A stretch of DNA of 64,000 bases from Stegostoma tigrinum (lineage: Eukaryota). This document shows positions 2,346 to 58,235 of this stretch, piece by piece. The translations under genes were made by a program, and so were the position numbers. The stretch is taken from positions 88,382,838-88,446,837 of the forward strand of contig NC_081359.1 in assembly GCF_030684315.1 (NCBI RefSeq), read 5' to 3'. The notes beneath the pieces are model-generated. The model was not told the DNA's origin, searched no databases, and was given only the letters and a program-made list of their open reading frames with translations. Each line of letters begins with the position of its first letter. Within the stretch, counting starts at the first letter, position 1.

Positions 2346-2435
2346 TTGTGATCTACTGGGTGACTGCATCGGTTGAGATACTGAAATTCGCTCCCATCGC
2401 TTTTGAGACAATTCTTCTGATAATCGTCTATAAAA
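2346..2435 (-). CDS. VPS36: VPS36 coding exon 5
   Basis: FYRRLSEELSQKRWERISVSQPMQSPSRSQ; AAG acceptor, GTAGG donor; 90 nt. Confidence 0.94.
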
Positions 2436-5400: not shown

Positions 5401-5860
5401 ATCTTTGCTCCATAGGATCAAATAGACAAACTCATTTTACATATAATTTTAACATAATATTGCAAGAAGGAATCAGAGGAAGTGCGTAATCACACTGCTG
5501 AGTGAGACTGCCTCTCACCATACACCTTTATAACTGGGTATAGCCATTCCTTCCTCAAAAAAAATGGTAATGTTCAACTTCTCTTAAAGCTGATGTTGAA
5601 CCTCCAAAGAGATAAATGAGTACTATTTGCATGATGTTGTTCTTTCTTGGGGATTTTATTATAAAACAAATAGTGCAACAGGAATCTGGAATTTGCAAAG
5701 TCATGCCAATCATGTCGGCCAAACTGAAGTACTATCGTCCTGCCTGGTCAACATTCATGGAATTTTTTTTATTGGTGAAACTCTCATTTAGGCACTAACA
5801 AACTTTTAAAAAAGCAGTGAATTGTTTTACATACATTTTAGCAGTCAGCATAATAATTAC

Positions 5861-5975
5861 CTCAATCTGTCCATGTTCCTTGAAAGACAACTTGATGTAA
5901 GAGTATTTGCTACTCCGATATGGACCAGGCTCTTTGTTGGGAGAAGCCGGTTGAAGATGAACTACTATTTTGGCA
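5861..5975 (-). CDS. VPS36: VPS36 coding exon 4
   Basis: (S)[38 protein letters not shown]; TTTCCAG acceptor, GTAATT donor; 115 nt, phase matches exon 3. Confidence 0.96.
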
Positions 5976-6779
5976 CTGGAAACAAAATAAAAGAGTTTGC
6001 TTTTTCAGTCATTTCCTTGATCAAGTACAAAGTGCAGCACTGTAAATGAAGAACCGACAATAGACGGTCATGTTGACACCTCTACATCACAATTTAGCCA
6101 GAACATTACACAATTCAACAAGAGCGCTGTTGGACAATTTCTTCTAAGTGTGTGATTCTCTCATTCTCTGTTGGTCGTCCCTTGAAAAAATGCTCAATGA
6201 TGATGGATACTTGACCAGAAGGGAAAAAAGGAAAGAAAATTCAGAAAGCATGCTTTGTAACAATAGTTCACAGGAATATTAAAAGAGTGTTCACCAAACG
6301 GTTACAGCACGAGACAGCCATTCAGCCCATTGTGCCAGTGCAATAATTCTGCAGAAGTTAATTAACTACTTGCACTCCTGCCTTTTATTCTACAAATTTT
6401 TCTCTAGATAATAATCCAATTTCTTTTTCTTTCCTTTCAATTTGCCCACACTCCTCAGCATGCTGCAGATATAACATCAAAAGGAGCATGCCATACAATA
6501 AACATATTAACTATTAAAAGATAAGGAAATCGAAAGAACTGAAAATGTGGATTTGATAATTTTCTTTTGCAGTACTGTCAAGGGGGCAACAAAAAGAAAT
6601 TACAAGAAGGACAAAGAACACAATACAATTACTAGTTAAATAAAGTTAAAATGCAAGAATATTACAATCATCTGTGGAACTGCAAGATTTTAAAGCACAG
6701 ACACTCAATCCACAAGTCACAGAACCAAAGAGGTTTATAGCACAAGACCATTCAACCAATTTCACTGAGCTGACTATTG

Positions 6780-8191: not shown

Positions 8192-8374
8192 AAGAACTGC
8201 AGACACTGGAGTCAGAGATAACAGTGTGGAGCTGGAGAAACATAGCAGGACAGGTAGCATCAGAGGAGCAGGAAAGTTCACTTTTCGTGGTGGAACACTT
8301 CTTCTTAAGAAATGTCAACTTTCCTGCTCCTCTGATGCTTGCAGTGTTCCTTCAGCTCCAGATGTGTTATCTCT
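8192..8374. mobile_element. Palindromic non-autonomous element made of two inverted family-A pLTR ends
   Basis: AGCATCAGAGGAGCAGGAAAGTT...AACTTTCCTGCTCCTCTGATGCT inverted arms. Confidence 0.8.
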
Positions 8375-8394
8375 AAACACATACAGCTCTTTTT

Positions 8395-12832: not shown

Positions 12833-14087
12833 CTGTAGGAAAGGCAAGTGAAGAAATAGCTAAATCCCATCAGCACTTTTAATCTAAACAGTCATAAGAA
12901 CAACTTACCTTCAGAATCCCAATTCAGTAAACTTTAACATACTGAATGCCAGACATAAAATTGTTACACACCAAAGATAAATCTGTATATATGAAAGGTA
13001 ATAAACAATGGCTTTTTTAAAAAAAATGTTGGCTCTAAAGTTGTTATATAACATTTTACAGATGTTTTATCTCACTTTATTCAAGCCTGAGAATGTTACT
13101 AAGTAACCTACTTAGCATAACTTTTGCAATTTAGAATTAGAATAAATTCTAAATTTTACAGTTCATTATTAATGCACCTGAAATAATGGAAACACTTCCC
13201 ACTACATTTTTCCACATCGCTGGCAGCACAGTTTGTTATTCTTAATGTAGTTTATACCATTTACTATAGTTTCTCAGGCTATCAATCCTTTCTACATTCT
13301 TCTTTTCAAAGTACTGACATGTGGTCAGCAAGAATGTTATGCCAGAAAGATTATCTAGGTTAATATAGTTCCTCTCACAGGCCAATTGCCTTTCATCTAT
13401 TCAATGTTGTGGCCACCCATGTGCAACAAGGAGATATTTCTCACTCAAAAGCATTGTGAATTGGTAGAATTCCCCTTCCCTTTAGGTTTGTGGAATATGC
13501 TTAAGGCTGGGATAAACAGATTTTTTTGCCTCTCAGGGAATAGAGGGTCAATGGAGAGCAGGAGGGAAAGTGGGCGTTGAGGCTGATCATTGTATTGAAA
13601 AACATAAAAGGCTCAAATGCCCAAATTATTTACTCCTACTCCTATTTCTTACTTTCTTAGATTAGCACAGGAAACAGGGGTAGACAGCAGGGCAGCGTGG
13701 TTAGCAGAATTTTGCATTTCCTGCCATTTGAGGGTGGGCTTAAATCACAATTCCCTAGTCCACAAAACTTATCCTTGGGCTACTTGTATCCATAGTTATT
13801 TTATCCCCACTAGAAAAAAGCTAATGCTTTTTTGAAAGAAACATTTCATGACTGTTTATTCAAAATTAATCATAGTTTCACCATGCTTGATGGCTAATTA
13901 AGGGTGGGTGATTTGTTCAGTGAGAAAAGCTCAAATAATGGAAATACAATCTTTTTCTTTATTAATATTCTCTCGACATGTCACATATCTTACGGTTGAT
14001 TCTTATTGAAGGGGTATTCCTGACCTATTTACCTTGACATGGCAGTATCAAATCTCAAATTGTACAAATTATTAAAGCTAGCATCAG

Positions 14088-14304
14088 AATGGCAGACGCT
14101 GAAGCATACATATATAACAGTGTGGAGCTGGAGGAACACAGCAGGCCAGGCAGCATCAGAGGAGCAGGAAAGCTGATGTTTCGGTTCAGGATCCTTCTTC
14201 AGAAATTCAGAAACGTCGGCTTTCCTGCTCCTCTGCTGCTGTCTTGCTTGTTTTCCTCCAGCTCCATACTGTCTAATCTCCGACTCCAACATGTGCAGTT
14301 CTTA
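14088..14304. mobile_element. Palindromic non-autonomous family-A pLTR hairpin element
   Basis: GGAGCTGGAGGAA...GAGGAGCAGGAAAG / CTTTCCTGCTCCTC...TTCCTCCAGCTCC arms; hammerhead core at 14175-14202 (-). Confidence 0.8.
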
Positions 14305-14389
14305 CTATCTCAGCGTACATGTGTGTTTCCTTTGGCACTCTTGCTCCAACATCATCCAGCCAAGTAGAACGGAATCAAATAACAGCTAT

Positions 14390-15430
14390 TTTACCTCTCA
14401 AGCCTGGTCACAGTCACCAGAATTGCCCTGTTCCCACATTGTTACCAATCTTTCCATCCCCATTTCCATTTCTCTTCTCCATGCTATCCACACCCCTGGA
14501 CATCACCTCAAAATACAACATTATGTCAACATTTGTGCAACAAAAATGCAGATGACACCCAGCTCCACCTCACCATCACCTCTTGAAATCACTCCACTGT
14601 TTCTGATGTGTTATACTGCTTTCCCTGCAGTTCTCAATGCGCAGCTATTTCGTCAAATTAACTATTGCAAAATCAAAACTACCTTCTTTGTTTCAAGCCA
14701 CAAATTTTGTTCCTAATTTCATTTCTCTCCCGGGCAAACATCTGATGCTGAAACTGACCATTTACAACCTTGCTATTGTATTTGACTCAGAGGTTAAGTT
14801 CCAAGACCACATGCTTCTCTCTCCATCCCTTGTCTCCCTTCATCCGTTGCTGAAACCCTAGTCCAGGTCTCTGTTACATGTGGTAATGCCTTGAATTTCT
14901 CCTCAATGGCCTTCTCTTTTTCATCAGCACCTCCCATAAATCAGAGATTATCCAAAACTCTACTGCCCACAGTCCAATGCACACCAAGTACCGTTCACTT
15001 ATCAACGTTGTGTTCACTGACGTCGACAGGCTCCCAGCCAGGTAATATATTGAATTTAAAAATCTTGCGCCTGTTTTCAAAATTTTTAAATGGCCTCACC
15101 CCTACTTGAGTCCTGCAACCTTTCAAAATCTCTTCACTCTTGCAATTTTGAATATCCCTGACCGCAAATGATCCAACATTGGTGGTGATACTTCCTTTTG
15201 GCTGAACTCCCCTCACTAAGTGTTTCCCCTCACTCTCCCCTTCTTTGAGAAGTTTCTCAAAAGCAACTTCTTTGACCAAGCATTTGGCCACTTTTTCTCG
15301 TACTGCGATTTGCATTCTTGGTGTCAAATATTATCTGCTAATGCTCATTGGAACATTTTACTGTGTTGAAAGGTACTATAAAAATATGAGTTGCTGTCGA
15401 CGCACAATCTTTGAAAAGTATCAGTAATTT
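14390..15430 (+). mobile_element. Decayed L2-like LINE
   Basis: ADDTQLHL (YADD region) near 14549 and L2-type C-terminal remnants. Confidence 0.6.
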
Positions 15431-20560: not shown

Positions 20561-21138
20561 ACCTTACTGCAGCAGCCCCACAGTGCTAGTCACTGGAATC
20601 CCAGCACAACCTCCAGAGTTGTGTAATAATACCTTTCAGCTGATTGTTTAGAAAATGTCTACACCACTTACCCTAATTTGTTCCATTTTAAATATAATCT
20701 TTTTCTATTTTCCTGAAAACAGAAGGCTGATGGGTGATCCAACAGAGGTCTTTAAAGTGATTAAAGACATTTAAGAGAGCATTGGATGTGCAAGGGTACG
20801 GGGGAAAGCAGGAGATTGGCACCAGGCAACGCTTGTTTGAAGAGCCGGCGATGGCACTGATGGGCTGAGTGGCTTCTTTCTGCACTGTAACAATTCTGTT
20901 ATTCTGTTTTGGTGGAGAGGGCGTATAAAGAATGTTCCATTTGCTGGATGTTGGCCAAGTAGCAATTTTGCTCAGTTTCATGAAGAGTTCCTTCCGTGAG
21001 ACTTAGTGAGATTTCTCATGCTATTTTCTGAAACACACCTTAATACATACAAACAATATTCTAACGACACCCAGTTCATATCTTCCCTCTACCATCATAC
21101 TCACCACTGTTGGGACATGCTGAGATTCCCAATACTGG

Positions 21139-21888
21139 GAATTGGGGAAATTGGGGAAACCAAGCGGAGGCTTGGGGACCGCTTTGCAGAACACCTCCAC
21201 TCGGTTCGCAATAAACAACTGCACGTCCCAGTCGCAAACCATTTCCACGCCCCCTCCCATTCTTTAGATGACATGTCCATCATGGGCCTCCTGCAGTACC
21301 ACAATGATGCCACCTGAAGGTTGCAGGAACAGCAACTCATATTCCGCCTGGGAACCCTGCAGCCTAATGATATCAATGTGGACTTCACCAGCTTCAAAAT
21401 CTCCCCTTCCCCCACCGCATCCCAAAACCAGCCCAGTTCGTTCCCTCCCCCCACTGCACCACACAGCCAGCCCAGCTCTTCCCCCCCCACCCACTGCATC
21501 CCAAAACCAGTCCAGCCTGTCTCTGCCTCCCTAACCTGTTCTTCTTCTCACCCATCCCTTCCTCCCACCCCAAGCCGCATCTCCATCTCCTACCTACTAA
21601 CCTCATCCCACCTCCTTGACCAGTCCGTCTTCCCTGGACTGACCTATCCCCTCCCTACCTCCCCACCTATACTCTCTCCACCTATCTTCTTTTCTCTCCA
21701 TCTTCGGTCCGCCTCCCCCTCTGTCCCTATTTATTCCAGTTCCCTCTCCCCATCCCCCTCTCTGATGAAGGGTCTAGGCCCGAAACATCAGCTTTTGTTC
21801 TCCTGAGATGCTGCTTGGCCTGCTGTGTTCATCCAGCCTCACATTTTATTATCTTGGATTCTCCAGCATCTGCAGTTCCCATTATCAC
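21139..21888 (+). mobile_element. 5'-truncated Penelope-like element, family A (GIY-YIG C-terminus plus pLTR)
   Basis: IGETKRRLGDRFAEHLHSVR...EQQLIFRLGTLQP; pyrimidine-rich pLTR with hammerhead core; 13-bp TSD TTCCCAATACTGG at 21126-21138 and 21889-21901. Confidence 0.88.
21762..21789 (+). ncRNA. Hammerhead core variant (AUC triplet)
   Basis: CTGATGAAGGGTCTAGGCCCGAAACATC; G>A breaks the ACGT palindrome. Confidence 0.6.
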
Positions 21889-24212
21889 TTCCCAATACTG
21901 GTACCATTTTTAAATGCCGTTGTGCAACATGCCAAGTAAATCCAAAGCTGCCTTGCACAGTTTCTGAAAATTGTTCTACATATGTCAAGCAGAAGAAAAA
22001 CTGGCAACACACATTGTTAATTAGGACCTCAGGACTAATAGAAGAGGCCACAGCATCAGATTTTGCCAGCCTAGTCTAAGGTTACCACATAGGTTAGTGC
22101 GATTTCTACAATCTAAAGGAATGCACAGCAATGTTGTAACAAAAAATAGGTCAATGACCATATCCACATTGAGAGAGTAATCTTTCTGAAGTGTACTGAA
22201 GGTCACTGTACCCGAAACACTGACATTAGCTTTCTCGCCACAAATTCTGCCAAACCTACTGAGTTTCTCCAACTACATATTTTTGCTTCAGATTTCCAGC
22301 ATCAGCATTTCTTTGTTTTTTTGGCCAACGTCTTTTCTCTGCTACTTCCCACCTTCTTTATCTTTGCTATCGCACTCACCTCTAACCAAGCTGACTCTCA
22401 CTACGACAAGCAACCTTGCTCTCAGCCACCTAATCCTCCCACCCATGCACTACCTACTCAGCCGTTCGATACCTTGCCATCTTTTGCCCCCCTCCACCAA
22501 CGCTAGCTGTGCCAGCCTCTTACTCAATTCCTCCATACCAATCATTCTTAGAGAAAATGGCCCACATTTAGGGTGGAAAGAATCAAATTGGGTGGTGGGG
22601 AGCCTGACATGCCCTAGACGTTGCTGGTGAGGACCATTCCTGTGGTTTTGCCTAAATCTCCAAGTCCCACAACCAAGTAAGATTCATTGTCCATGCTGTG
22701 CTGTTCTCCCATTACCTTCACTATGAATGTACTCTTAACAAACCTGAATTTCTACCCTTTTTTAGCAACACGTTCTTTCTCTTGTCACCCCAGGGACCAA
22801 TGACATTTTGCACAGACCCCGCCATCCGGAAAGTGGACTGCAAAACATTTCATCCTCTGTCTCCTAGGAAAAAGCCCTCAGAGGATGCTCAAACACAGCT
22901 GCCTCTCACACCCTCCAACAGCTCAGACACTGACAGCTTGGTATGTATTTTATCTAAATTAGAGTCAGGAACTCTTGCTGGTCAATACACATCACTGCCA
23001 CATCTCCACAACTGATCTTGAAAGAAATGCCCCGGCCTCATTACCAAGCACAGGATTGGCATAGATCAGGAACATGCTCAGGCCAGACAGGAGAGGACCT
23101 GTTGAGTTTTGGAAATTAAGAACTTTAAAATGCACACACAAATACGGGAACAGCAGGTTAATTAGAGGCACTGGGAAATTGACTCAAAAGTTGAAGGACT
23201 CCACTAGTGCTAATTGTACTGTGCTGCTTCTGGCATGCAAGCAGCCAGAAATCTCTACGGACAGGCTGGTGACAGCTATGGAGAGCCAGGTCCAGCACAC
23301 ACAGTGTCTGCTGAATACACACCCAGATCTGCAATCCATAGCTGTAACCATTGGTACTCAGCACTGGTTGTACTGGATCCACAGGACTCGATATGACTTA
23401 ATGCCTGGACTGTAGAGGTACAAACACCCCCTGACCCTGACCACGCCAAGCGGCGGACAAACTGTGCCCAAGTCTCTAGACAGACATTGGAATCGTCTCT
23501 CGACTTACTGTGCCAGGATCCCCTGACTCTAGGGTTTCTCCCTTGATTGACTGAGGTACTAGTTGGACCAAAGAGTCTGTTTCCATGCTGTATGACTCTA
23601 TGACTATTCCTGTTACTCTCTGAGACTTGCCCATTTAGTAGAAGCACATGCAGATTGTTTGCTAGGTATGATGCTGGCTCATGGTGCAGGTGTGAAATTG
23701 ACATAGCGTGGTACCACACAGCAAGATGTCCACCTTCCTGATTGATCATTACTGACAACCATGCCAATTTGCTTTGCTTTTGGCAGCGCTAAACGTCAGG
23801 ACAAGACAGAAATACAATAATATTAACTTTTAAGCTCTGGCCAAAGAAGAAAAATACAAAAAGGCAAGGCAAGGCAGAGATGTTGTGAGCATTCATGTAC
23901 TACTAACAACAGGTGAAGAGCCCCAAGTTACACCCTAGTGAAATCCATGAGCTGGTGCCTGTCTCTGCGCACAAAGTATCCTTGCAGCAGCATTCCAATG
24001 CAAGTTCTTGGTGTGCTCCAAATTACAGCATTGAAGTGCAGAATTGTATTGAAAGTGGGTTGAAGATGTGCCATGACGTGCAGTGAGGCTGGTAACATGG
24101 CAATATCTGTGGATGGGCGTGGGTTTGGTAAGCTCACTGCCCAGGGACTGCATCGTAAGATATTGGTGAGGAACTCACTAGGGGATAGCTGAAACAAAGA
24201 GTATCAATGCTT

Positions 24213-25810: not shown

Positions 25811-27654
25811 TGTTTACATTCTAATGTAATGCTAATGTGTTAATATTGCTTGTTGAGCCTTCATTAATGTGCTGGGTTAGATTTTCAGCCTTGCCACCCG
25901 TTTGTTAAATAACATTTGAATGAGTTGAGGGAAATCTTGCAGAAACTGTCAGATTTTCCTTTTGGTTACATAAATGGTGCAAAAGTCAGGGGTGTCCTGT
26001 TAATGGTGAACATATTTTCTAATTAACCTGCTCAGGAATGTTACCTATTCCCAGGTGTGGAACTTGTACCCAGGGGTTCCCTGTTAATGGTATATGATTG
26101 TTCTGGAAGGATTCCCACCATTGTACTTCACTTGGGCAGATGAGACAAGAATCTAATCAACTTTATCCCATTAAAAATTTTTTAAAAGTTTATGAATGTT
26201 GAAGGATCAAATTAATAATTGTTAAAATTAGCAGGAAAAAATGAAACATTGCTAAAAAGAGACAAGAAGTTGGATTTTTTGACCTTGCACTAATCAGAAT
26301 TAGGTTCAAGAAATATACCATTTTATAAAACGTGAAAAGAGGGTCTGGATTTGTTGGGCCATCATTGGCATGGAGATGCAGCATGAACAGTTAACTATCA
26401 ATCTTAGTTCTCAGATCAGGCAGGTAAGTTCTGATTGGTCAGGGTATTGCCATAGGGATGCAACATTGATCAGCGAGCTCCATGACGCTTAGCTTATTCA
26501 CTAGCATACTACTTAAAGAAGTCATTGACATTTGCATTATTATGTGGCAACTTAAATGTGCTAACAGCATCTGAAAATACATTCAAATTCATGAACTTAG
26601 CACTTGTGCATTCAGATTCAACTACACCATGTGCACATTGCCACAGAATCCGCTCAAGGTCCAACTCTTACTAACATCTTTGTTGGTTACCATGAGAAAT
26701 GCATTTCAGGGAGAATGACCACTAACCTACTCCCTCTTGCAAAACTCTGATATCTATTTGACGCATTTGCAGTACCTGAACATACTGCTGCCCCAAAGAA
26801 TTTCTTTAAACACAGTTTAATAATCTCCATCCTATACTCAAATTTGCTATTAAAATGGAGTAATTAAACTAGCATTGTTTCCTTGATGTATTAGTTGAGA
26901 AATCCACCAATGGGTTCTCAACTATCTACTGAAAGCTTACATTCCACTCACTACAAGATCAGTTTTACGAACAACTTCATGAATAATCACCTAGTCACTT
27001 GCTAGCTTGATGCTGAAATAGGGCATATCAAAACTATCCTGCATGATAACAGTTACCTTGATCAAATCATCACTTTCTCTATATTGTGAAAATTCATGAA
27101 AATGCCTATTTCAACACCTTTTGGCCAAGAGTAGTACCCTAGAAGGGCAAAGCAACCTCAAAAATTAGAGCAGCAGGTGAATCCAGCGGTCTCATGCTTA
27201 TCACCATGCAGTGAACTCACAAATGGTTTTCTCCACTAACAGGATGCTATCATCATTTATTTATATGATAGGCAAAATGATGATTTGAGTTTCATAATAG
27301 GTGTAGTGCCAGGTATTTAGGCCGTATCATTTGCTATGACATGGAGGTGATGGTGTTGGACTGGGATGGACAAGGTCAGAAATCACACGACACCACTCAC
27401 AGTCCAACAGGTTTATTTGAAGACACAAGCTTTTGGAGTTATTGGGGTGTAACAACCACAATCCCTTTGACTATTTGCAGTAGATTGTGTGCCAATCATG
27501 CTCGACCAGCCTGGATGTTATTCTGTGATGGGAAATAAATGATTAACTAATCTGGATAGTGCTAAGAACTACCAAAAGCTAACTTAGGACCATCAACAAG
27601 GCTCGCAGAATGAAATGTTTGTGCATACTAGAAGCTACATATCAATACAAATGA

Positions 27655-28273
27655 TGTGGAGGTGTCGATGTTGGACTGGGGTGGACAAGGTCAGAAATCA
27701 CACGACACCAGGTTAAAGTTCAATAGGTTTATTTGAAAATACAAGCTTTTGGAGCCTCAGTCCTTCTTCAGGTGTTAGTGAGAGAGCTCGTATCAGACAC
27801 AGAATTTATAAGTAAAAGATCAAAGGTTCACACCATTGATGAGGATGTACTAAACAAACTTAAGACGCTATTAAATCCTTATTCAGTTAGAAGGTTTAAA
27901 TTGATTAACATATTTATGTAAATCCCAGAATTCCTTTCAAGTCACGGTCCTGAGAGAACTAAAGGTTTTATCAGTGTAAAGAAAAGGTAACATTTTAGGT
28001 CAGACAATGCACGTTAGGTGTGAGACTTTGTTTAGAATCTGTTTGTGTTTCAGTTTGGAGTCAGACCGGTTGTATTGTCTAAAGTAGAAATTTATAAAAT
28101 GCCATACTGACCAACTATCTATTAATTGGGGGCTTTTCTGAACAAAATAAAATGTGTCTGCAAATACAAATCCACCCCCTAGATTCATACATATGTGTGT
28201 GAGAGAGTGAAAGAGAGAGTGAGGGGGAGAGAGAGAGAGAATGTGTGTGTGCGCGCGTGTGTGGGTGGGGGGT

Positions 28274-28595: not shown

Positions 28596-28729
28596 ATCAA
28601 CATAGGACAATGTTTAACATAGGCAGAAAGAATTTGTACATGTTCTACTTTTATCATGAGAAAAGTCAAGGAGACAGCCAATGATTGCTGTTTCCCCATG
28701 ACAACACCCTGACTAATCAGAATTGTGAC

Positions 28730-29935
28730 CGAGGTCCTCAAAAGGTCATAACAGATTAACAGTCTGTTCATTCACTTGATCTCCAAGTTTGAATTGCTGC
28801 CATCTAGCGTGCTTTTACAGGATACAGAATTTTAAAACTGTTTTCTCATCTGCAAGTCTATCTTTCTGTAAAGTTGAGCTCACCCAGAATTCAGTTCATT
28901 ATATCCTGCCTAAGTCACTTAGCCGTTATGCTATCTCTGTAACTATATAGAATCCGGATTTACCTGCCTGGTCTGAGAATTAAGATTGCTGGATATTGTG
29001 CTTGCTATATTTCCATGCCAATGATAACCAAATAATCAGCACCCTCGTCTCATGCTGTGTGCAATTGTGTCCTTTTTTTCTCAAGTCTGCTTCTTGCATC
29101 CCTCTGCTGAGTACAAAATGAAAAGGTTTAACTTCTTACTGGCAACATGGAAAATGAGAACAGGACTAGGCCACCTCTTAATCCAACTCAATATACTGTT
29201 ATTGCTTATCCCCCTACCTTTTCATCTCTTTAGGTGTAAGAACTAGATCTAACACCTTCTTGAAAACATTCAATCTTTTGACCTCAACTGCTTCCTGTGG
29301 CAGTGAATTCCAAAGGATCGCTACTGTCTGGGTGGAGAAATTTTTCATCTTAAATGAAAACCTACCTCATCTCCTTGCACTGTGACTCCTGGTTCTGGAT
29401 TCCTCAGTCATCAGGAGCATCATTCCTGCATTTGCATTGTCTGGTCCTGTTAAAATATTTATAGGTTTCTATAAGCTACCCCTTGATTATCTAAACTTGC
29501 CCCCTTTAGCAATGTTTTAAGTACAATAATATTAAAACATATTAAGCCCTGAAGCCTCATCTTCTACATGAATGTTTACACATCAAATAGTAACTAATTT
29601 GATATCATTAATATTGTCTTCAAATCCGTTCTACACAGCTTTGTATACCACTCACTATTTTAGTTATTTAGTTAGATTCTACACAAACAGCAGAAAAAGT
29701 ACAGCTGTTAGATAGCTGGGTTTGAATTCAAAACAGCATTGTAACTGAGGGTCTCAAGAGGTCATAACGGATACACGTTAGTGGATTCACTTGATCTAAG
29801 TTTAAATTGCTGCCACCTAGTGTGCTTTCACAGGATACAGAATTTTAGAACATTTTTCTCATTCATGAGCCTATCTTTCTGTAAAGTTGAGCTCACTCAG
29901 AACTCAGTTCATTATATCCTGTCCAAATCACTTCA
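28730..29935 (+). repeat. Local direct duplication of ~190 bp (28730-28920 and 29747-29933)
   Basis: Shared GGTCATAAC...CAGGATACAGAATTTTA...TATCTTTCTGTAAAGTTGAGCTCAC...CAGTTCATTATATCCTG. Confidence 0.9.
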
Positions 29936-31004
29936 GAGCCAAGATGTTACCTCTGTAATGATACAGAATCAAAGAATTGTTACAGTGCAGATGACAGCTA
30001 TTCAGCTCATATTTGCCTCTGTGCTACAAACAATTACGAATCACTGAGTACCATACTCCTGCCCTTTCCCCATAATCCTGCACAAACTTCCTTTTTTGAT
30101 TACAGTCTAATTCCCTTTTGAATGTTTCAATTGATTTTGCCTCTACCATACAATAAGTGCATTTCAGACCTTATCCATTAGTGCAAAAATATCTTCATGC
30201 CCTACAAACCTCCAAAAAAACTCTTCTGAGCTGCAAGTGTCTTTGAAGTACCTCAAGGACTGAACACCATTATAGGTTATCACCCTCTGATACAGGAGCC
30301 TGTTCTCACATACAAGAACGTTACGATTGCACTACAGATGGTGTAATGCAAATTCATTAGGATGTTGCCTGAGCTGGAGTGATTCAGCTATGAAGGGAGA
30401 CTAAGTAACTGCAGGTAGTTTGCACGGAGAAGATTGAGAGATGGGTATGTGTATGAACCCGATTTGAGGTGTATAAAGTTCTGAGGGCGTTGACAGGACA
30501 GATCGGGAGAAACATTTCTGCTTAGCAGAAGGGTCAATAACTAGGCTTTTAAAGGTAAAGAGCAGGTGGTTTTGAGATTTGAGGATCTTGTGATTTTCCT
30601 AGAAGTTGGTAGGTAGCTGGAACTCTGTCTAAAAGGGGTAGTACAGACTGGAACCAGCAAGATATCGAAGACACACAAGGTTACACTGCAAAGAACTGGA
30701 AAATGGGATTAGAACAGATAGATGACTCATGACAATCACAGAGACAATAGGCAGAAAGGTCTTTTTTTCCATGCTGTAAGAACTATATGACATGACTATG
30801 CCATTTTATACTGTTTATTGCACCAGTCCATTTCATAGCTATATTGAAACTCGAAGCCTAAACACTTTTGATATTGCAACCCAGCTTTACGTGCCATGCT
30901 GAAGATAAACACAGCCTACTGGCAGTGCACCTTCTATGCCACCTCTCAACTTGGTCTGTGCCAGCCAGTTTTGAATGGGTGGATTCCAACAACAGTTGGA
31001 GGGA

Positions 31005-31227: not shown

Positions 31228-31560
31228 CCTTAGACAGACAAAGGAGTGATAATGGAACAAAAACAAAGTTGCTGGAAAAGATCAGCAGGACTAGCAGTAC
31301 CTCTGAAGGAAAAAACTGAGTTAACGTTTCAGATCCCGTGACCCTTCCTCAGAACTGTTTCTGATTTACAGCATCCACAGTTGTTCTGGTTTTTATTTAA
31401 AGGAGTGATAATGATCTGGCTTCCAGCTATTAATGGGGATTCTTAGTTGCTAACAATGGGTTGTGTAACGTCAGCCTATGCGATGGCAAGGCCTGGTTGT
31501 GGGGGGATTGGCGTAAGTATATGGGAGAGCTCAAGCCCTAAAGTTGTTGAACTCGATAAG
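31005..31560 (-). mobile_element. Nested family-B PLE pLTR pieces with a (GA)n tract
   Basis: Two GCTGGAAAAG.TCAGCAG ends; hammerhead core at 31321-31352; (GA)n at ~31186-31222. Confidence 0.6.
31321..31352 (-). ncRNA. Hammerhead core (family B)
   Basis: Reverse complement AGTT-CTGAGGA-A-GGGTC-ACGG-GATCT-GAAACGTT-AACT; stem I AGUU/AACU, GUU triplet. Confidence 0.6.
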
Positions 31561-32420
31561 AGTCCGGAAGGTAGTAGGAACTGCAGATGCTGGAGAATCT
31601 GAGATAACAAGGTGTAGAGTTGGATGAACACAGCAGGCCAAGCAGCATCAGAGGAGCACGAAGGCTGACATTTTGGGTCTAGACCCTTCTTCAGAAATGG
31701 GGGAGGGGGAAGAGGATTCTGAAATAAATAGAAAGAAAGGGGAGGTGGATAGAAGATGGAATGACAAGAAGATAGGCAGAGAGGAGACAGACAGGTCAAA
31801 TAGGCAGGAATGAAGCCAATAGAGGTGAGTGTAGGTGGGGAGGTAAGGAGGGGATAAATCAGTCCAGGGAGGACGGACAGGTCAAGGGGGCGGGATGACG
31901 TTAGTAGGAAGGAAATGGGAGTGCGGCTTGAGATGGGAGGAGGGGAAAGGTGGGAGGAAGGACAGGTTAGGGAAGCAGGGACAAGCTGGGCTGGTTTTGG
32001 GATGCAGTGGGGGGAGGAGAGATTCTGAAGCTTGTAAAGTCCACATTGATACCATTAGGCTGCAGGGTTCGCAAACAGAATGAGTTGTTGGGTTGCAGGA
32101 ACAGCATTTCATATTCCACTTGGGAACCCTGCAGCCCAATAGTATCAATGTGGACTTCACAAGCATGAAAATCTCCCCTCCTCCCCCCGCATCCCAAATG
32201 CTTGGCCTGCTGTGTTCATCCAGCTCCACACTTTTATGTTGGCTCTTGCAGCATCTGCAGTTCCCATTATCCCAGCTCATCCCCAACTCCTCCTTCCTCC
32301 CACTTCAAGTCCTACCCCCATCTCCTACTTACTGACCTCATCCCACCCCCTTGACCTGTCCATCATCCCCAGACTGATCTATCTCCTCCCTACATCCCCA
32401 AATACACTCAGCTTTATTGT

Positions 32421-32677
32421 CTCAATGATGATGGATACTTGACCAGAAGGGGAAAAAAAGAAAATTCAGAAAGCATGCTTTGTAACAACAGTTCTACAGG
32501 AATATTAAAAGTGTTCACCAAATGGTTACAGCACATGAGACAGCCATTTAGCCCATTGTGCCAGTGCAATAATTCTGCAGAAGTTAAACTACTTGCACTC
32601 TCCTGCCTTTATTCTACAATTTTTCTCTAGATAATAATCCAATTTCTTTTTCTTTCCTTTCAATTTGCCCACACTCC
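32421..32677 (+). repeat. Dispersed duplicate of 6193-6454 (VPS36 intron 3)
   Basis: Near-identical from CTCAATGATGATGGATACTTGACC to CAATTTGCCCACACTCC. Confidence 0.95.
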
Positions 32678-32946
32678 CCCCACTGCATCCTAAAACCAGC
32701 CCAGCTTGTCCCCGCCTCCTTACCTACCCCGTTCTTCCTCTCACCCATCCCTTCCTCCCACCTCAAGCCGCACCTCCATTTCCTACCTACTAACCTCATC
32801 CCGCCTCCTTGACGGGTCCGTCTTCCCTGGACTGGCCTATCCCTCCCCACCTAAATTCTCCTCTCCACCTATCTACTTTTCTCCATCTTCGGTCCGCCTC
32901 CCCCTGTCTCCCTATTTATTCCAGAACCCTGTCCCCATCCCCCTCT

Positions 32947-32974
32947 CTGATGAAGGGTCTAGGCCCGAAACGTC
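32947..32974 (+). ncRNA. Minimal hammerhead ribozyme core (family A), consensus intact
   Basis: CTGATGA-A-GGGT-CTAG-GCCC-GAAAC-GTC; GUC cleavage triplet, palindromic ACGT stem III. Confidence 0.75.
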
Positions 32975-33179
32975 AGCTTTTGTGCTCCTGAGATGCTGCT
33001 TGGCCTGCTGTGTTCATCCAGCTTCACACTTTGTTATCTGCGACTAGAATTGGCAAGTTTGCAATGTACGCGGAGCAGCAAGCCACACGTGGTTAAGCCA
33101 GAGGAAAAGGAATCAGAAAGTAACGCTTTACACATTCCATACTTTATAACATCGCATTCCATTTCAGAACACGCACTCA

Positions 33180-33502
33180 TCCCAGACACCCACGCCTGCG
33201 CAACTACGGTACATGGTCATAGTCTCCTTGTCCTTGTCACGCCTCTTCTCCCCCCGCCCGCAACTACGCATGCTCACAACGCCATTTCAAAGTTACGTGC
33301 CTGACCAGTCTCGGAATGAGCGGATTGGTCAGTTTGTGCGAGGTCATGTGGCTTGTTTTGAGGGGCGAGGGGAAGGCGGTAGCGCAGCCAATCGGTGGCG
33401 CGGGAGCGAAATTCAAACGGGGACAGAGCAGCGCGATTGGCTGGAGCGGGGAGAGTTAACGGCAGCGGAAAGCCGCTCCGATTTTACAAACATAGGTGCA
33501 AC
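33180..33502 (+). promoter_or_regulatory. CKAP2 CpG-rich, cell-cycle-type promoter
   Basis: CCAAT boxes at 33324-33328 (reverse), 33388-33392 and 33436-33440 (reverse); reverse CHR TTCAAA at 33412-33417 next to E2F/CDE-like TGGCGCGGGA; MYB-like TAACGG at 33457-33462. Confidence 0.7.
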
Positions 33503-33560
33503 ATGCTAGCCGCTCACACTGTTACCGGGGCGAAGCCTCGGCAACCCCTGTCATACGCCG
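33503..33560 (+). CDS. CKAP2: CKAP2 coding exon 1
   Basis: ATG at 33503, MLAAHTVTGAKPRQPLSYA+G; GTACTT donor; phase 1 joins exon 2 to give DQRRQKL. Confidence 0.75.
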
Positions 33561-33773
33561 GTACTTTAGTGCTTTTGGGGCGAGTGGTTTCCACCGGGTC
33601 ACTTACAAATGTTGCTCCGGGGTTAGGAAGGAACGGTCGATCGAGGCGGTTGTTTTATTTCTATGTTAACGTTGCTGGTGCTGTTGCCGCTTCAGTTTGC
33701 TGGCCGTTGCTAAAAATGTGGTTGCACTGATGGTGTCATGACTGCTTCTTTTTTGCCTTTACCCCACCCCCAG

Positions 33774-47977: not shown

Positions 47978-48925
47978 GGAAGGCTTGGAGACCGCTTTGC
48001 AGAACACCTCCGCTCAGTTCGCAACAAACAACTGCACCTCCCAGTCGCAAACCATTTCCACTTCCCCTCCCATTCTCTAGATGACATGTCCATCATGGGC
48101 CTCCTGCAGTGCCACAATGATGCCACCCGAAGGTTGCAGGAACAGCAACTCATATTCCACCTGGGAACCCTGCAGCCTAATGGTATCAATGTGGACTTCA
48201 CCAGTTTCAAAATCTCCCCTTCCCCTACTGCATCCCTAAACCAGCCCAGTTCGTCCCCTCCCCCCACTGCACCACACAACCAGCCCAGCTCTTTCCCCCC
48301 CCCACCCACTGCATCCCAAAACCAGTCCAACCTGTCTCTGCCTCCCTAACCGGTTCTTCCTCTCACCCATCCCTTCCTCCCACCCCTAGCCGCACCCCCC
48401 CACTACCTACTAACCTCATCCCACCTCCTTGACCTGTCCATCTTCCCTGGACTGACCTATCCCCTCCCCACCTATACTCTCTCCACCAATGTTCTTTTCT
48501 CTCCATCTTCGGTCCGCCTCCCCCTCTCTCCCTATTTATTCCAGTTCCCTCTCCGGTGAAGGGTCTAGGCCCGAAACGTCAACTTTTGTGCTCCTGAGAT
48601 GCTGCTTGGCCTGCTGTGTTCATCCAGCCTCATGTTTTATTATCTTGGTTTCTAGGTGGTTGCCTGACATGGAGACAGAGAGGTCCAGGAAGGTGAGGGA
48701 TGTGTTGGAGATGGTCCAGGTGAACTTGAGCTTGCGGTGGAAGCTGTTGGTGAAGGGGATGAACTGTTCCAGCTCCTTGTGGGACACAAAGCAGCGCCGA
48801 TGCAGTCATCAACGTAACAGAGGAAAAGGTGGGATTTAGGGACAGTGTAGCTACGGACGAGGGATTGTTCCACGAAACCTACAAAGAGGCAGGCATAACT
48901 TGGGCCCATGCGGGTGCCCATGACT
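47978..48925. mobile_element. Family-A PLE 3' end (+) joined to an inverted RT fragment (-)
   Basis: RLGDRFAEHLRSVR plus pLTR at ~47978-48648; minus-strand MGTRMGPSYACLFVG...YVDD at ~48650-48925. Confidence 0.85.
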
Positions 48926-49299
48926 AGAAACTGGTCATTCAAGAAATATGCTGCATTCTATCCACTGCATTAACATCACGTCTTTGTACACCCCATCCTG
49001 GATACTTAAAATCGAATCTAGACTTAGCGTTGTGTGGCGTGGTTATTTCAGCTCACCTCATAAAACATAGCAAATTTTGCGCCCTTCAATAAAATTTGTG
49101 ACAGAAACCAAAACCTGAACAGTAACTTTGGGATTTTTAAAATCTAACACTGCGTCCTTTCAGCATAAATAACAATGAAATGAACGTTCGTTTCACAGCT
49201 ATTTTAACACATTGACCTGGGTCACTGGCTCATTGCACAAGCTTTCTATAGCCCTAACACGTGATGATGGTGAACGCCTTCCCATGACCTCGTTTGCAG

Positions 49300-50465: not shown

Positions 50466-50582
50466 ATGGATGCTTACACTGTATTAAAGGTTATTGGGGA
50501 AGGTTCCTTTGGCAGAGCGCTTTTGGTCCAAGCAAATAATGAAAGTCAGCAATATGTCATGAAGGAAATTCATCTTTCAAAG
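50466..50582 (+). CDS. NEK3: NEK3 first coding exon (kinase subdomains I-II)
   Basis: [39 protein letters not shown]; Gly-rich loop and catalytic Lys; GTAAAT donor; 117 nt. Confidence 0.93.
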
Positions 50583-50654
50583 GTAAATAATGATGTGAAC
50601 TTTTGGAGAAAAGTTACTGATTTTCTTTGAAAAGTGTCATGAGACCTTCTATAA

Positions 50655-50835
50655 CGAAAACTGGAATTGCTGGAAAATCTCAGCAGGTCTGGCAGCATTG
50701 AGTTCTGAAAAAGGGCCACTGGACCTGAAATGTTAACTGTGATTTCTGTTCACAAATGTTGCCAGACCTGCTGAGCTTTTCCAGCAATTTTTGTTTTGTT
50801 TCTGATTTTCAGTGTCCACTGTTCTTTTGGGTTTT
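50655..50835. mobile_element. Palindromic family-B pLTR hairpin element in a NEK3 intron
   Basis: AATTGCTGGAAAATCTCAGCAGGTCTGGCA / TGCCAGACCTGCTGAGCTTTTCCAGCAATT arms flanking a decayed hammerhead core. Confidence 0.75.
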
Positions 50836-51391: not shown

Positions 51392-52325
51392 GTGAGAATT
51401 CGTGGAAGTAATTATCCTCAACAATTCCTTCTCCAATATTGCTCTTTAACTTATTCTAATGTTCCTCTGCTTATTGCTATTTTCCAAAGGAAATGACCTT
51501 CACAGAATTCACAGCATTAAAACAGTTTTACATGCTGCGCATAAGTCTCCCCCATCTCTCTTTAGCTAAACTTTTCTATATATTTTTTCCATTCCGTTTT
51601 CCCAGACGTTATCTAAATTTCCCTTAAATACATCATTGAAGCTTGTGTCAACTATTCCTTGTGATAGCTGGTTCCACATTCTAAATACATTCTCTGTGTA
51701 AAGATAGTTCTCCCAACTTCCCTTTTGATTTTATTAATAGCTATATTATGTTTATAGACACGAGTGCTGCTTTCGCCCACCAGAATCTGTCGGTAGTCTA
51801 GACTTTTGGCGTTAGAACATGAGGCCATTTAGCTCTTCGAACTCTGTCTATGATTGAATGAGATTATGGCAGTTTTGGAACAAAGAACAGTACAGCACAG
51901 GAACAGGCCTTTCAGCCCACCAAGACTGTGCCAACACATGATGCCTTTTTAAATTAAAAATCTTTGCCTCAATGCGATCCATTTTCCTGTATTCCCTGCC
52001 TATTCATGTATCTGACAAGATGTCTCTACTATTGTATTCCCCTCCACCGCCACCTCTGGCAGTTTATTCCAGGCACTTATCACCCTCTGTGCGCAAAGGG
52101 CTTGCTTCTCACATCTCCTTTAAGCTTATCCCCTTTTACCTAAACCCATGTCCCCATTCACTCTGCCCTGACCAATGAAGGCAAGCTTGGCATATGCATT
52201 CTTAACCAGCTTATCCACTTGTGTTCGTGATAATGGGAACTGCAGATGCTGGAGAATCCTAGATAACAAAGTGTGGAGCTGGATGAACACAGCAGGCCAA
52301 GCAGCATCTCAGGAGCACAAAAGCT

Positions 52326-52353
52326 GACGTTTCGGGCCTAGACCCTTCATCAG
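52326..52353 (-). ncRNA. Minimal hammerhead ribozyme core (family A), consensus intact
   Basis: Reverse complement reads CTGATGAAGGGTCTAGGCCCGAAACGTC. Confidence 0.75.
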
Positions 52354-53562
52354 AGAGGGGGATGGGGAGAGGGAATTGGAATAAATAGGGAGAAAGGGGT
52401 AGGCGGACCGAAGATGGAGAGAAAACAAGATAGGTAGAGAGGAGAGTATAGGTGGGGAGGTAGGGAGGGGATAGGTCAGTCCAGGGAAGATGGACAGGTC
52501 AAGGAGGCGGGATGAGGTGGTAGGTAGGAAATGGAGGTGAGGCTTGGGGTGGGAGGACGGGATTGGTGAGAGGAAGAACAGGTTAGGGAAGCAGAGACAG
52601 GCTGGGCTGGTTTTGTGATGCAGCGGGGGGAGGGGAAGAACACGTATCATCCTCCAACAACCTCCGGATACAACGTATCATCCTCCGACACTGCCGCCAT
52701 CTACAATCCGACCCCACCATCCAAACCATTTTTCCATCCCCACCCTTGTCTGCCTTCCGGAGAGACCACACTCTCCGCGACCCCCTTGTCCGCTCCACAC
52801 TCCCCTCCAACCCCACCACACCTGGCACCTTCCCCTGCAACCGCAGGAAGTGCTACACTTGCCCCCACACCTCCTCCCTCACCCCCATCCCAGGCCCCAG
52901 GATGACCTTCCATATCAAACAGATATTCACCTGCACATCTGCCAATGTGGTATATTGTATCCATTGCGCCGGGTGTAGCATCCTCTACATTGGGGAAACC
53001 AAGCAGAGGCTTGGGGACCCCTTTGCAGAACACCTCCGCTCGGTTCGCAACAAACAACTGCACCTCCCAGTCACGAACCATTTCAACTCCCCCTCCCATT
53101 CTTCAGACGACATGTCCATCATGGGCCTCCTGCAGTACCACAATGATGCCACCTGAAGGTAGCAGGAACAGCAACTCATATTCCGTTTGGGAACCCTGCA
53201 GCCCAATGGTATCAACGTGGACTTCACAAGCTTCAAAATCTCCCCTTCCCCTACTGCATCCCAAAACCAGCCCAGTTCTTCCCCTCCCCCCACTGCACCA
53301 CACAACCAGCCCAGCCTGTCTCTGCTTCCCTAACCTGTTCTTCCTCTCACCAATCCCTTCCTCCTACCTCAAGCCGCACCTCCATTTCCTACCTACCACC
53401 TCATCCAGCCTCCTTGACCTGTCCATCTTCCCTGGACTGACCTATCCCCTCCCTACCTCCCCACCTATACCCTCCTCTCTACCTATCTTGTTTTCTCTCC
53501 ATCTTCGGTCTGCCTCCCCCTCTCTCCCTATTTATTCCAATTCCCTCTCCCCATCCCCCTCT

Positions 53563-53590
53563 CTGATGAAGGGTCTAGGCCCGAAACGTC
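53563..53590 (+). ncRNA. Minimal hammerhead ribozyme core (family A), intact, sense to NEK3
   Basis: CTGATGAAGGGTCTAGGCCCGAAACGTC. Confidence 0.75.
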
Positions 53591-54769
53591 AGCTTTTGTG
53601 CTCCTGAGATGCTGCTTGGCCTGCTGTGTTCATCCAGCTCCACACTTTGTTATCCACTTGTGTTGCCTCTTTCAGGGAACTATGGACCAGTAAGCCTAGA
53701 TACCTCTATTTGTTCATGGTACTAAGGGTTCTGTCATTTACTGTATACTTCCGTCCTGCATTGGGTCTCCCAAAATGCATTACTTCACATTTGTCCAAAT
53801 TAAACTCCATCGACCATTTCTCCATCCAAGTCTCCAGCCTATGTATATTGTGCTGTTTCATCTGGCAATCCTCCTCACTGCCCAGAACTCCCCCATTCTT
53901 TGTATTGTCCTCAAACGTACTAATCAGACCACCTCCATTCTGTTCCAAATCAATCTAAAACACAAGTGTCCTAGTACTGATCCTTGAGGAGCATCACTGG
54001 TCACAGATCTCCAGTCTGAAAAAACACTCTTCTACCACTACTCTCTGTCTTCTATGACTGAGCCTGTTCTGTATCCATTTTAACAGCTCACCCCACATCC
54101 AGTGTGACTTCACTTTTGAAAGAGTCTACTATGAGGGGCCTTGTCAAAGACTTTGCTGAAGTCAATACAGATAACATCTACGACACTTCCCTCATCAATC
54201 TTCTTTCTCGTGTCCTCAAAAAATACAATCAAGTTTGTGAGACATGATCTTTCCCACACAAAAGCGTGCTTCTTGTTTGCGAATAAGTCCATATTTTTCC
54301 AAACGTGAGTAAATTTCATCCCTAAAAATTAAATCAAATGATTTCCCTACCCTGTTTGATTTTTATTCTTTCATGGGTTGTGGGCATTGGTGGCTGGGTC
54401 AGCATCTGTTACCCATTCCTTGTAGCCCATGAGCCAGATGCCTTTTGTAGGTCATTGCAGAAGACTGTGAAGTGTTAGTCACATTGATGGGGTCCAGACT
54501 CGCATGTAGGTCAGACTGAGAAAGGATGCAGAATTCCTTAACCAAAAGACATTTGTGAACCAGGTGGGTTTTTATGATAGATGACAGTAGTCATCATTAG
54601 ATCAGCTTTTAATTTTAGATTTTATTGAATTGCAGTTTCACCATTAGCAGTTAACAGTGGGATTTGAACCTCTATCCCCAGGACATTATGCTAGGAGTCT
54701 GGGTTATGAGTCTTGTGATATCACCACTATCCCACCACCTCCCTATCTTCTATGTCAACAACATTTACC

Positions 54770-56264: not shown

Positions 56265-58235
56265 ATGAAACCATTTCCACAAACCCGCCTGCCCTGGTCG
56301 ATCCATTGTCTCCGCCTGCTCCTGCCCCACCCAACTTATCTCCACCTATCTGGACTCCATTTTCTCGCTTGGTCCAGGAACTCGCTACTTACGTCCAATA
56401 CACCACCCACACTCTCCACCTCCTCCTGAACTTCCAATTCCCCAGTCCCCAACACCTCATTTTTACTATGGACATCCAGTCCGTATACACCTGCATTCCC
56501 CATGCAGATGGCCTAAAGGCCCTCCGCTTCTTCCTGTCCCACAGGCCTGACCAGTCCACCTCCACTGACACCCTCATCCACTTATCCGAACTCATCCTCA
56601 CCCACAACAACTTCTCTTTCAATTCCTCCCACTTCCTACAGACAAAGAGGGTGGCCGTGGGTACCTGCATGGGCCCAAGCTACGCCTGCCTCTTTGTAGT
56701 TTACATGGAACAATCCCTCTTCCGTACCTACATTGGCTGTAAACCCACCTCTTCCTCTGTTACATTGATGACTGTTTCGGCGCCATCTCCTGCTCCCATG
56801 AGGAGCTCAAACAGTTCATCCACTTCACCAACGCCTTCCACCCCAACCTTAGGTTCACCTGGACCATCTGTAACACCTTCCTGGACCTCTCTGTCTCCAT
56901 CTCAGGCAACCAACTAGAAACCGATATCCATTTCAAGCCCACCGACTCCCACAGCTACCGAGAATACACCTCCTCCCACCCACTTCCTGCAAAAATGCCA
57001 TCCTCTATTCCCAATTCCTTCACCTCCGCTGCATCTGCTCCCAGGTTGAGGCATTCCACTCCTGTACATCTCAGATGTCCTTGTTTTTTAAGGACTGCAA
57101 CATGCCCCCCGCAGTAGTCGAGAACGCCCGCAACCGTGTCTCCCGCATTTCCCGCAACTTATCCCTCACACCCCGTTCCCCGCAATAACAACCAAAAAAG
57201 AATCCCCCTCGTCCTCACATACCACCCCACCAACCTCCAGATCCAACGCACCATCCTCCGACACTTCCGCCATCTGCAATCTGACCCCACCACTGCTTTC
57301 TGGAGGGACCACTCTCTCCGTGACTCCCTTGTCCACTCCTCACTCCCCTCCAGCCCCACCACACCCAGCATTTTTCCCTGAAACTGCAGGAAGTGCTACA
57401 CCTGCCCCCACACCTCCCCCCTCACCCCCATCCCAGGCCAAAAGACGACTTTCCACATCAAGCACAGGTTCACCTGCACATCTGCTGATGTGGTCAACTG
57501 CATCTGCTGTACCCGTTATTGCCTCCTCTGCGTCGGGGAAACCAAGCGGTGGCTTGGGGACCACTTTGTGGAACACCTATGCTCGGTTTGCGACAAACGA
57601 CTGCACCACCCAGTTGCGACCTATTTCTACTCCCCCTTCCACTCCTTGCACAACATGTCCATCCTGGGCCGCCTCCAGTGCCACAGCGATGCCACCCGAA
57701 GATGCAGGAACAGCAACTCATATTCCGCTTGGGAACCCTGCAGCCCAATGATATCAATGTGGACTTCACAAGAGTTAAAATCTGCCCTTCCCCAAATGCG
57801 TCCCAAAATCAGCCCAGCTCGTCCCCGCCTCCCTAAACTGTTCTTTCTCTCACCTATCCCCTCCTCCCACCTCAAGCTGCACCCCCATTTTCTTTGTCCC
57901 AAACGCATCCCGCCCCCTTGACCTGTGCATCCTCCGTGGACAGACCTATCCCCTCTCTACCTCCCCACCTACTCTCACCTCTACTGGCTCCATCGGCGCC
58001 TCTTTAACATGTCTGTCTTCTCTCCACCTATCTCCTCCTCTATCCATCTTCGATCTACCTCCCCCTCTCTCCCTATTTATTTCAGAACCTTCTTCCCCTC
58101 CCCAATTTCTGATGAAGGGTCTAGGCCTGAAACATCAGCTTTCCTGCTGCTAAGATGCTGCTTGCCCTCTGTGTTCATCCAGCTGTATACTTTGTTATCT
58201 CGGATTCTCCAGCATCTGCAGTCCCTATTATCTCT
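56265..58235 (+). mobile_element. Family-A PLE, RT plus GIY-YIG plus pLTR, frameshifted
   Basis: RT motifs FTMDIQSVYTCIPH, VAVGTCMGPSYACLFV and YIDD; GIY-YIG VGETKRWLGDHFVEH; pLTR with hammerhead core. Confidence 0.92.
58109..58136 (+). ncRNA. Hammerhead core variant, sense to NEK3
   Basis: CTGATGAAGGGTCTAGGCCTGAAACATC. Confidence 0.55.

Follow-up and report, generated by a model that had tools for sequence, protein, structure and literature searches.

Several described systems place templated host sequence beside new insertions. Genomic sequence templated from nearby accompanies some L1 insertions (PMC11702581), class 2 templated sequence insertions have been described as polymorphisms (PMC5110952), and capture of host DNA by Penelope elements has already been reported in Adineta vaga (PMC3846280). 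For L1 chimeras, ligation or template switching has been invoked for partners in sense orientation, and twin priming for antisense ones (PMC13174262). In yeast, repair synthesis favours -1 deletions in short runs (PMC12891019). The late integration steps of Penelope elements are stated to be unvalidated (PMC11167929). Here, we describe such a locus, in which a copy of a VPS36 intron segment adjoins a truncated Penelope-like element upstream of CKAP2.

A VPS36 intron segment is duplicated upstream of CKAP2

The window, i.e. the whole stretch of DNA analysed, comprises 64,000 nucleotides from Stegostoma tigrinum. Self-BLAST of the window aligned two segments, both on the plus strand, over 267 columns at 92.9% (E=7e-104), with 8 gap openings and 4 mismatches:

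6193..6454, plus strand: donor segment, within VPS36 intron 3; three small deletions relative to the acceptor and outgroup
32421..32677, plus strand: piece V, acceptor copy of the intron segment; five small deletions relative to the donor and outgroup

The acceptor copy is 257 bp long and offset from the donor by 26,228 bp. Global alignment of the pair contains four substitutions, 4/4 of them transitions (acceptor positions 32452, 32489, 32523 and 32549), and eight indels of 3, 1, 2, 2, 3, 2, 1 and 1 nt. The same-orientation match had been proposed in a sequence-only reading, and both alignments bear it out; the accompanying count of about eight small indels stands, while that of about three substitutions is revised to four. 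The acceptor right end, CCCACACTCC, leads directly into the C-run of the pLTR, as that reading had also noted. The duplication is confirmed as real, with support that is good but incomplete. The right 60% of the donor is a decayed repeat remnant (62.7% to 29975-30132). Two local direct duplicates elsewhere in the window have an ordinary spectrum: 28715-28954 and 29731-29970 (81%, 3 gaps, 40 mismatches), and 27336-27438 and 27651-27754 (86.5%, 1 gap, 13 mismatches).

VPS36 was placed on the minus strand by six-frame translation, with the exon 1 ATG at 20482, exon 2 near 15515 and exon 3 near 12790. Vps36_ESCRT-II Pfam matches on exons 1 and 2 are weak and fall under the curated cut-off. The remaining landmarks of the two host genes are:

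5847..5977, minus strand: VPS36 exon 4, from translation and exon order; this exon alone is without a Pfam match
33503..33505, plus strand: putative CKAP2 start codon, 826 bp right of the insert end

It is because of this exon placement that the donor, which starts 216 bp from exon 4, is assigned to VPS36 intron 3. CKAP2 lies on the plus strand, with a CKAP2_C match (E=2.5e-15) on an exon later than the start codon, and the distance to the putative ATG agrees with an earlier estimate of about 0.8 kb.

The acceptor copy lies in a cluster of Penelope-like pLTR pieces

The flanking family looks Penelope-like, a name that rests on sub-cut-off GIY-YIG and RT leads together with architecture. On other window copies the Atlas feature leads are 0.96 for GIY-YIG (family on 18-40% of cluster members) and 0.92 for RVT_1, while the corresponding Pfam matches (GIY-YIG E=0.26, RVT_1 E=0.012) are both under their cut-offs and there is no intact ORF. 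The stretch at 52229-53654 is a textbook Penelope-type insertion with an inverted 5' pLTR, a GIY-YIG-like frame and a 15-nt target-site duplication. Its inverted pLTR (52229-52641) is 96.8% alike to 53275-53654 (12 substitutions and 0 gaps in 380 nt), and the GIY-YIG frame at 52587-53153 gives plus as the element sense strand. Target-site duplications of 13 and 15 nt are present at 2/3 other family-A copies. The copy at 21150-21888 has the 13-nt duplication, beside which a short tandem duplication occupies the 5' junction (copy taken as 21126-21901). At 47981-48957, a family-A pLTR adjoins an inverted RT-region fragment (82% to 56658-56922) without spacer. Three further sites, 8123-8390, 14018-14410 and 50567-50830, hold inverted repeat pairs that look like element ends placed head to head, their perfect arms being 16-23 nt long.

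To partition the cluster around the acceptor copy, we aligned it to five copies from the window, four of family A and one long-form:

31247..31571, minus strand: old pLTR-like piece of a third family; its 5' end adjoins piece I; 66% to 1567-1852
31569..32090, minus strand: piece I, inverted long-form pLTR with its 3' end leftward, from alignment to window copies
32091..32198, plus strand: piece II, pLTR fragment in head-to-head arrangement with piece I, from alignment to window copies
32199..32271, plus strand: piece III, 73-nt pLTR 3' end between II and IV, nearest to family A (91.8%)
32272..32426, plus strand: piece IV, old long-form pLTR fragment next to the insert on its left, lacking its own 3' continuation
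32674..33039, plus strand: piece VI, 5'-truncated family-A pLTR and right neighbour of the insert, 89.0-91.7% to four family-A copies

Across 31247-33039, six pLTR pieces of three subfamilies thus adjoin without spacer. Pieces II and IV are nearly contiguous in element coordinates and are read as a single old forward copy; piece III (32199-32271) sits inside this older copy, with about 5 nt lost and no duplication. Two wider schemes for the cluster gained no support. A chain of local templated pieces finds no close window donor for II, III or IV (best 88.0, 91.8 and 78.1% over length), and an old element left of the cluster that resumes at 33040 scores 24 against a shuffle mean of 29.

Piece VI is without an ORF, and its right end coincides with the commonest 3' terminus of the family. 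Loose contig ends accumulate at 33038-33039 in 4/4 runs (839 to 4250 records at 33039), and VI therefore ends at the usual 3' terminus of the family, i.e. the start of reverse transcription; internal initiation of reverse transcription gives such recurrent 3' ends (PMC11167929). Loose ends at both 32946 and 33039, in hundreds to thousands of contigs per run and in both organisms described below, suggest an abundant solo form of the element end of roughly 94 nt. CUGAUGA and GAAA, words of the hammerhead ribozyme core motif, are visible in piece VI. Rfam matched no hammerhead ribozyme in the window or in 31500-33100: there were 0 matches at gathering score in the window, and 5 weak, uninformative ones at E<=5 in 31500-33100. 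Folding of the pLTR pieces is no better than that of shuffles (pLTR fold z 0.21).

Piece IV is 71-78% alike to every other copy and 74.4% to piece VI, and has part of a roughly 40-nt segment absent from family A. Since IV is long-form and so distant from VI, the insert does not lie inside one element. The earlier placement of the insert between family-A pLTR pieces must accordingly be amended: the right neighbour alone is family A, and the left is an older long-form piece.

At the right junction, V and VI directly overlap by 4 nt, CTCC, common to donor and element. At the left, the CTC(AAT) of piece IV overlaps the insert start, and CTC, or 5/6 letters, is shared with the long-form copies; this overlap is deduced from those copies, since the continuation of IV is lost. 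Random breakpoints (100,000 trials each) gave at least 4 nt in 1.3-1.5% and at least 3 nt in 4.4-4.6% of trials. No target-site duplication was found at the cluster, the longest shared word being 4-7 nt in seven boundary pairs. A C-box-like word at the insert start was dropped from consideration, since it is antisense to the host gene.

The two copies compared with public contigs

A run search with the donor region (94 words) listed 16 runs. Four runs from one sample of organism B hold 0.95-1.00 of the 94 words, and nine runs from three studies of a relative, organism A, hold 0.11-0.13; three raw bisulfite runs (X14-X16) were left out of the contig comparison, as conversion lowers likeness. 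Contigs of 4/16 runs were compared with 32272-33600 at 80% likeness, namely X10 and X13 (organism B) and X7 and X4 (organism A). The B sample is possibly the source of the assembly, in which case it tests the consensus and not a second individual.

X10 contains a 1747-nt contig with exactly the differences of the donor (4 letters, 15 gap letters). X13 alone of the two shows a route of acceptor type, with two contigs at 32505-32509, one with AG at depth 12.1 and one without at 11.6, the promoter being at 10.7. The X13 donor contig stops at 32550, where the donor and acceptor versions cease sharing 31-mers (C/T at 32549), and the X13 promoter contig extends 24 letters into piece VI. The predicted bubble contigs would be 121 letters long, just below the shortest X13 piece listed. 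Among the matches listed, no contig bridges either V junction with 31 letters on each side; X10 shows the donor version alone across 32495-32617, with no acceptor-type contig, and both B runs show the donor version alone at 32586-32607. Read support for the acceptor deletions comes to 1/5 (AG), indirectly, through the X13 depth arithmetic.

Depth at 32587-32631 is 4.9 and 17.4, compared to single-copy values of 6 and 10.7; at near single-copy depth the segment is therefore not a many-copy repeat at 80% likeness. Many dispersed full-length copies, which the sequence-only reading had named as grounds for abandoning its proposal, did not appear, and the mid-V depth likewise gave no sign of remobilised cargo, with the proviso for both that contigs can hide rare copies. 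At 33145-33160, both organism-B runs have a second contig at single-copy depth with C>T at 33153, near the contig end; this is a variant or a short second copy in the CKAP2 promoter.

A relative polarises the changes

In X4 and X7 the promoter contig of organism A aligns from 33041, and its next 238-242 letters find no fit in IV, V or VI among the matches listed. The ending of these contigs 238-242 letters to the left of 33041 would be consistent with a relative that lacks the entire 31569-33039 cluster. Each site shows one V-like version, which is donor-like. Since V and VI are absent at the site in 2/2 relative runs, both postdate the split. The presence of the donor without the acceptor copy in related sharks had been put forward as a check. 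In organism A there is a single donor-like copy, and the site itself is free of the insert and of the element to its right.

Gap arithmetic of the relative against the acceptor comprises insertions only (X4, +16/16 gap letters; X7, +5/5 and +11/11). Organism A has the donor length at five sites (the 3-nt purine run, AG, ATT, T and A), of which the purine run is covered by X7 only and ATT by X4 only, and the acceptor length at three (T 32495, AT 32535 and CT 32598). Independently, the AT site is ungapped in the remnant at 29975. Parsimony makes deletions of all eight indels, five of them belonging to the acceptor copy and three to the donor; run-shortening accounts for 4/5 on the acceptor side and 1/3 on the donor side. 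A further 9-nt indel sets organism A apart from both B copies. The four substitutions appear to split about 2:2 between the copies: 32452 alone is read directly, 32489 is deduced from a missing row and the other two are taken from the distant remnant.

One further feature distinguishes the donor:

6227..6437, strand not applicable: perfect 13-nt inverted repeat, donor only; arms 6227-6239 and 6425-6437, 185 nt apart

The arms are set in from the ends of the copied piece by 34 and 17 nt. An inverted repeat of 13 nt is reached by 1/500 shuffles, and the best in the acceptor is 9; at least 13 nt is found in 6/487 tiled windows, at the sites of inverted repeat pairs. In organism A the left-arm GG is absent (X7), and two letters of the right arm are swapped.

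The indel spectrum is unusual

All indel tests are post hoc, the finding having been chosen out of a very large scan, in part because of its indels, and the values below should be read in that light. The ratio of 8 indels to 4 substitutions exceeds that of the private changes of five family-A copies (7:36; Fisher p=0.0015, post hoc), that of 25 window repeat pairs (94 gap openings, 1040 mismatches; Fisher p=1e-6, post hoc) and that of the differences between organisms A and B in the segment (1 indel, about 10-13 substitutions; Fisher p=0.003-0.009, post hoc). The earlier remark that the spectrum is unusually indel-heavy thus holds against both window baselines. Restricted to the four indels with read support, p is 0.055 for the family-A baseline and 0.003 for the repeat-pair baseline. 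Taken alone, the acceptor deletions are in clear excess (p about 0.004-0.006) and the donor deletions in borderline excess (p=0.03-0.13). The family-A copies have 7 private indels in 1801 nt (0.4%), compared to 5 in the 257 nt of the acceptor (2%; P=0.004).

The sequence-only reading had allowed that an assembly or polishing artefact could also give the indel bias. Copying or polishing error in the new copy does not suffice: 3/8 are donor deletions, present in read-derived contigs, and because of them sloppy copying or polishing cannot explain all eight. Among titles and abstract openings we found no description of deletion-only divergence of both a donor and its copy, a weak null given that subscription literature is mostly uncovered.

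Substitutions behave differently in the neighbouring element. Piece VI has 11 private substitutions in 358 nt (3.1%), and the V copies have 4 between them (0.8% per copy). Equal age and mutability of V and VI would predict about 15.5 where 4 are seen (P=0.0006); a rough CpG correction for VI lowers the prediction to about 8.5 (P=0.07).

Proposed origin of the intron-derived patch

We tentatively favour, as a possibility somewhat short of probable, that host repair synthesis, copying nearby DNA while the element insertion was being closed, produced the 257-bp piece from VPS36 intron 3. Reverse transcription of piece VI, target-primed at 33039, would have halted after about 366 nt. The other chromosome end would have been resected with loss of target DNA, as the about 240 letters of the relative that fit none of IV, V and VI may indicate. 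One free end could then have annealed to the intron 26 kb away via 3-6 nt of microhomology, to be extended by 257 nt by a slippage-prone repair polymerase and rejoined by microhomology. The acceptor deletions, 4/5 of which shorten a short run, are as expected of repair synthesis; the three donor deletions would represent later drift at a somewhat high rate. The insert corresponds to the donor plus strand and is hence antisense to VPS36 RNA, the element sense being plus. Because the template would be DNA, antisense orientation needs no extra step. The reverse transcriptase of the element is seemingly not so deletion-prone, which tips the balance towards a host enzyme working on a DNA template. 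The weakest step of this explanation is co-insertion of V and VI, against which the substitution mismatch between them (P=0.0006; 0.07 CpG-corrected) speaks. Also against the explanation, no listed contig bridges either V junction. The mild excess of donor deletions (p=0.03-0.13) is unaccounted for, and the acceptor density of 5/257 nt is far over the mutation rate of yeast repair synthesis, about 3.9e-4 per event (PMC12891019).

Routes through RNA were also considered. The sequence-only reading had proposed, as one of two routes, that the element reverse transcriptase switched template onto VPS36 pre-mRNA, presumably on the first strand, and V does lie at the 5' end of VI, where such a jump would place a host piece. 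A first-strand switch predicts sense orientation, however, and the antisense insert would demand an antisense transcript, so that an RNA route needs twin priming. This switch is largely refuted and highly improbable, as is an ordinary dispersed repeat: part of the segment is indeed decayed repeat (62.7% to 29975-30132), but depths of 4.9 and 17.4 against single-copy 6 and 10.7 argue otherwise. Under twin priming, the second chromosome end would have primed on nascent VPS36 pre-mRNA via CTC(AAT), and the Penelope reverse transcriptase would have copied 257 nt, joined at CTCC. That would yield exactly the observed antisense orientation from a donor in the adjacent gene; twin priming is also the explanation given for antisense partners at L1 5' ends (PMC13174262), and in vitro an anole Penelope protein both cleaves and extends the two strands (PMC11167929). 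We nevertheless consider it unlikely, as family-A copies made by the same reverse transcriptase have 0.4% private indels compared to 2% in the acceptor, priming would have relied on 3-6 nt alone, and L1 cases tend to keep a target-site duplication (PMC11702581), of which there is none here. The piece is wholly intronic and therefore carries no mark of RNA processing (splicing, editing or poly(A)). A DNA route without the element is rather unlikely: a later double-strand break between existing IV and VI would have been resected and patched with the intron copy. The surplus of private substitutions in VI (3.1%, against 0.8% per V copy) makes VI appear older than the V pair and this later, independent repair a live rival, and the microhomology, lack of duplication and lack of poly(A) match class 2 features (PMC5110952). 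On the other hand, V and VI are both missing at the site in the relative, the private changes of VI possibly derive in part from its source element, and V lies exactly at the 5' end of VI.

The indels themselves bear on two further readings. In one, which is quite unlikely, both copies were rewritten, in one event or by repeated ectopic pairing, through deletion-prone resynthesis of a folded single-stranded intron piece. All 8/8 indels as deletions, split 5:3, in a segment with otherwise 1 indel compared to the relative (p=0.003-0.009), would follow, and the donor-only 13-nt inverted repeat lies just inside both ends of the piece, with the matching letters absent from the relative. The D-loop template strand is moreover a known damage site in yeast BIR (PMC9262586). 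Against this, the donor excess alone is borderline (p=0.03-0.13), folding of the whole segment is no better than that of shuffles (z -1.25 for DNA, -0.33 for RNA), the inverted repeat, noticed post hoc, is of low complexity, and the donor reporter copy is typically unchanged in yeast BIR (PMC9262586). The finding was, besides, selected from a very large scan partly for indels. Its specific form, in which a Penelope insertion was closed with the folded intron piece and the donor, rewritten too, gained a hairpin-perfecting change, is equally improbable. Were it true, donor loci of templated insertions would keep a mappable mutational scar in the vertebrate germline. The other reading is an assembly or polishing artefact, whereby the acceptor copy, or most of its indels, would not exist; we rate this very unlikely. 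No listed contig bridges the junctions, the X10 and X13 donor contigs cross the right junction unbroken, and the three acceptor deletions at 32586-32617 are absent from both runs among the matches listed. Yet X13 has contigs with and without AG at depths of 12.1 and 11.6, both near the single-copy 10.7, and its donor contig stops at 32550, just where the C/T difference at 32549 predicts a branch. The acceptor further retains three ancestral letter groups lost from the read-supported donor, which is impossible for a chimera of the present donor, and all substitutions are transitions.

Host repair synthesis from nearby DNA during closure of the insertion accordingly remains the preferred account. 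The earlier proposal of a templated insertion from a neighbouring locus is upheld in so far as the donor is VPS36 intron 3 and the copy is absent at the site in the relative. To speak of a Penelope-like element picking up host sequence is overstated, the piece lying 5' of a truncated, ORF-less pLTR with no sign of further movement. On this account, the patch took the place of at least about 240 bases, roughly 0.5-1 kb upstream of CKAP2; no signs of function were seen there, and the insertion product is most likely a neutral scar. If the event did cause deletions in both copies, donors are not passive templates, and so abundant an element family would then allow donor-side deletion counts across many patches.

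Comparison with known systems

The locus resembles class 2 insertions (PMC5110952) in its host-derived patch, absence of a target-site duplication and of poly(A), and junction microhomology (4 nt read directly on the right, 3 nt deduced on the left). An intact genomic donor, which defines that class, is present in X10 and X13 contigs, and X4 and X7 have a donor-like single copy. It differs in its local donor (distant in class 2), in the position of the patch at a retroelement 5' end and in the changes to the donor.

Host sequence between pLTR pieces is a trait shared with the Adineta vaga capture (PMC3846280), where duplication-free microhomology 5' junctions also occur. There, however, the cargo is framed by matching pLTRs and a target-site duplication and moved as a unit, whereas the flanking pieces here are 74% alike, belong to different subfamilies and have no duplication. 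Framing by two pLTRs of one element was not found, IV (long) and VI (short subfamily) being 74.4% alike. Antisense RNA/LINE-1 chimeras (PMC13174262) likewise place an antisense host piece at the element 5' end, but are recognised by target-site duplications and endonuclease motifs, neither of which is seen here.

Yeast double-strand-break repair synthesis (PMC12891019) has deletions exceeding insertions, shortened short runs and quasi-palindrome changes in common with the V pair, although its changes are of far lower density, mostly 1 nt, and scored in the recipient copy only. L1 local-template insertions (PMC11702581) offer a 5'-truncated retroelement, neighbourhood host sequence, microhomology and target-site loss; the present case is Penelope-type, germline and deletion-rich, with 257 nt from a donor 26 kb off. 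Our best reading is that the event is a further instance of this known class, a locally templated repair patch, and not capture into a mobile element.
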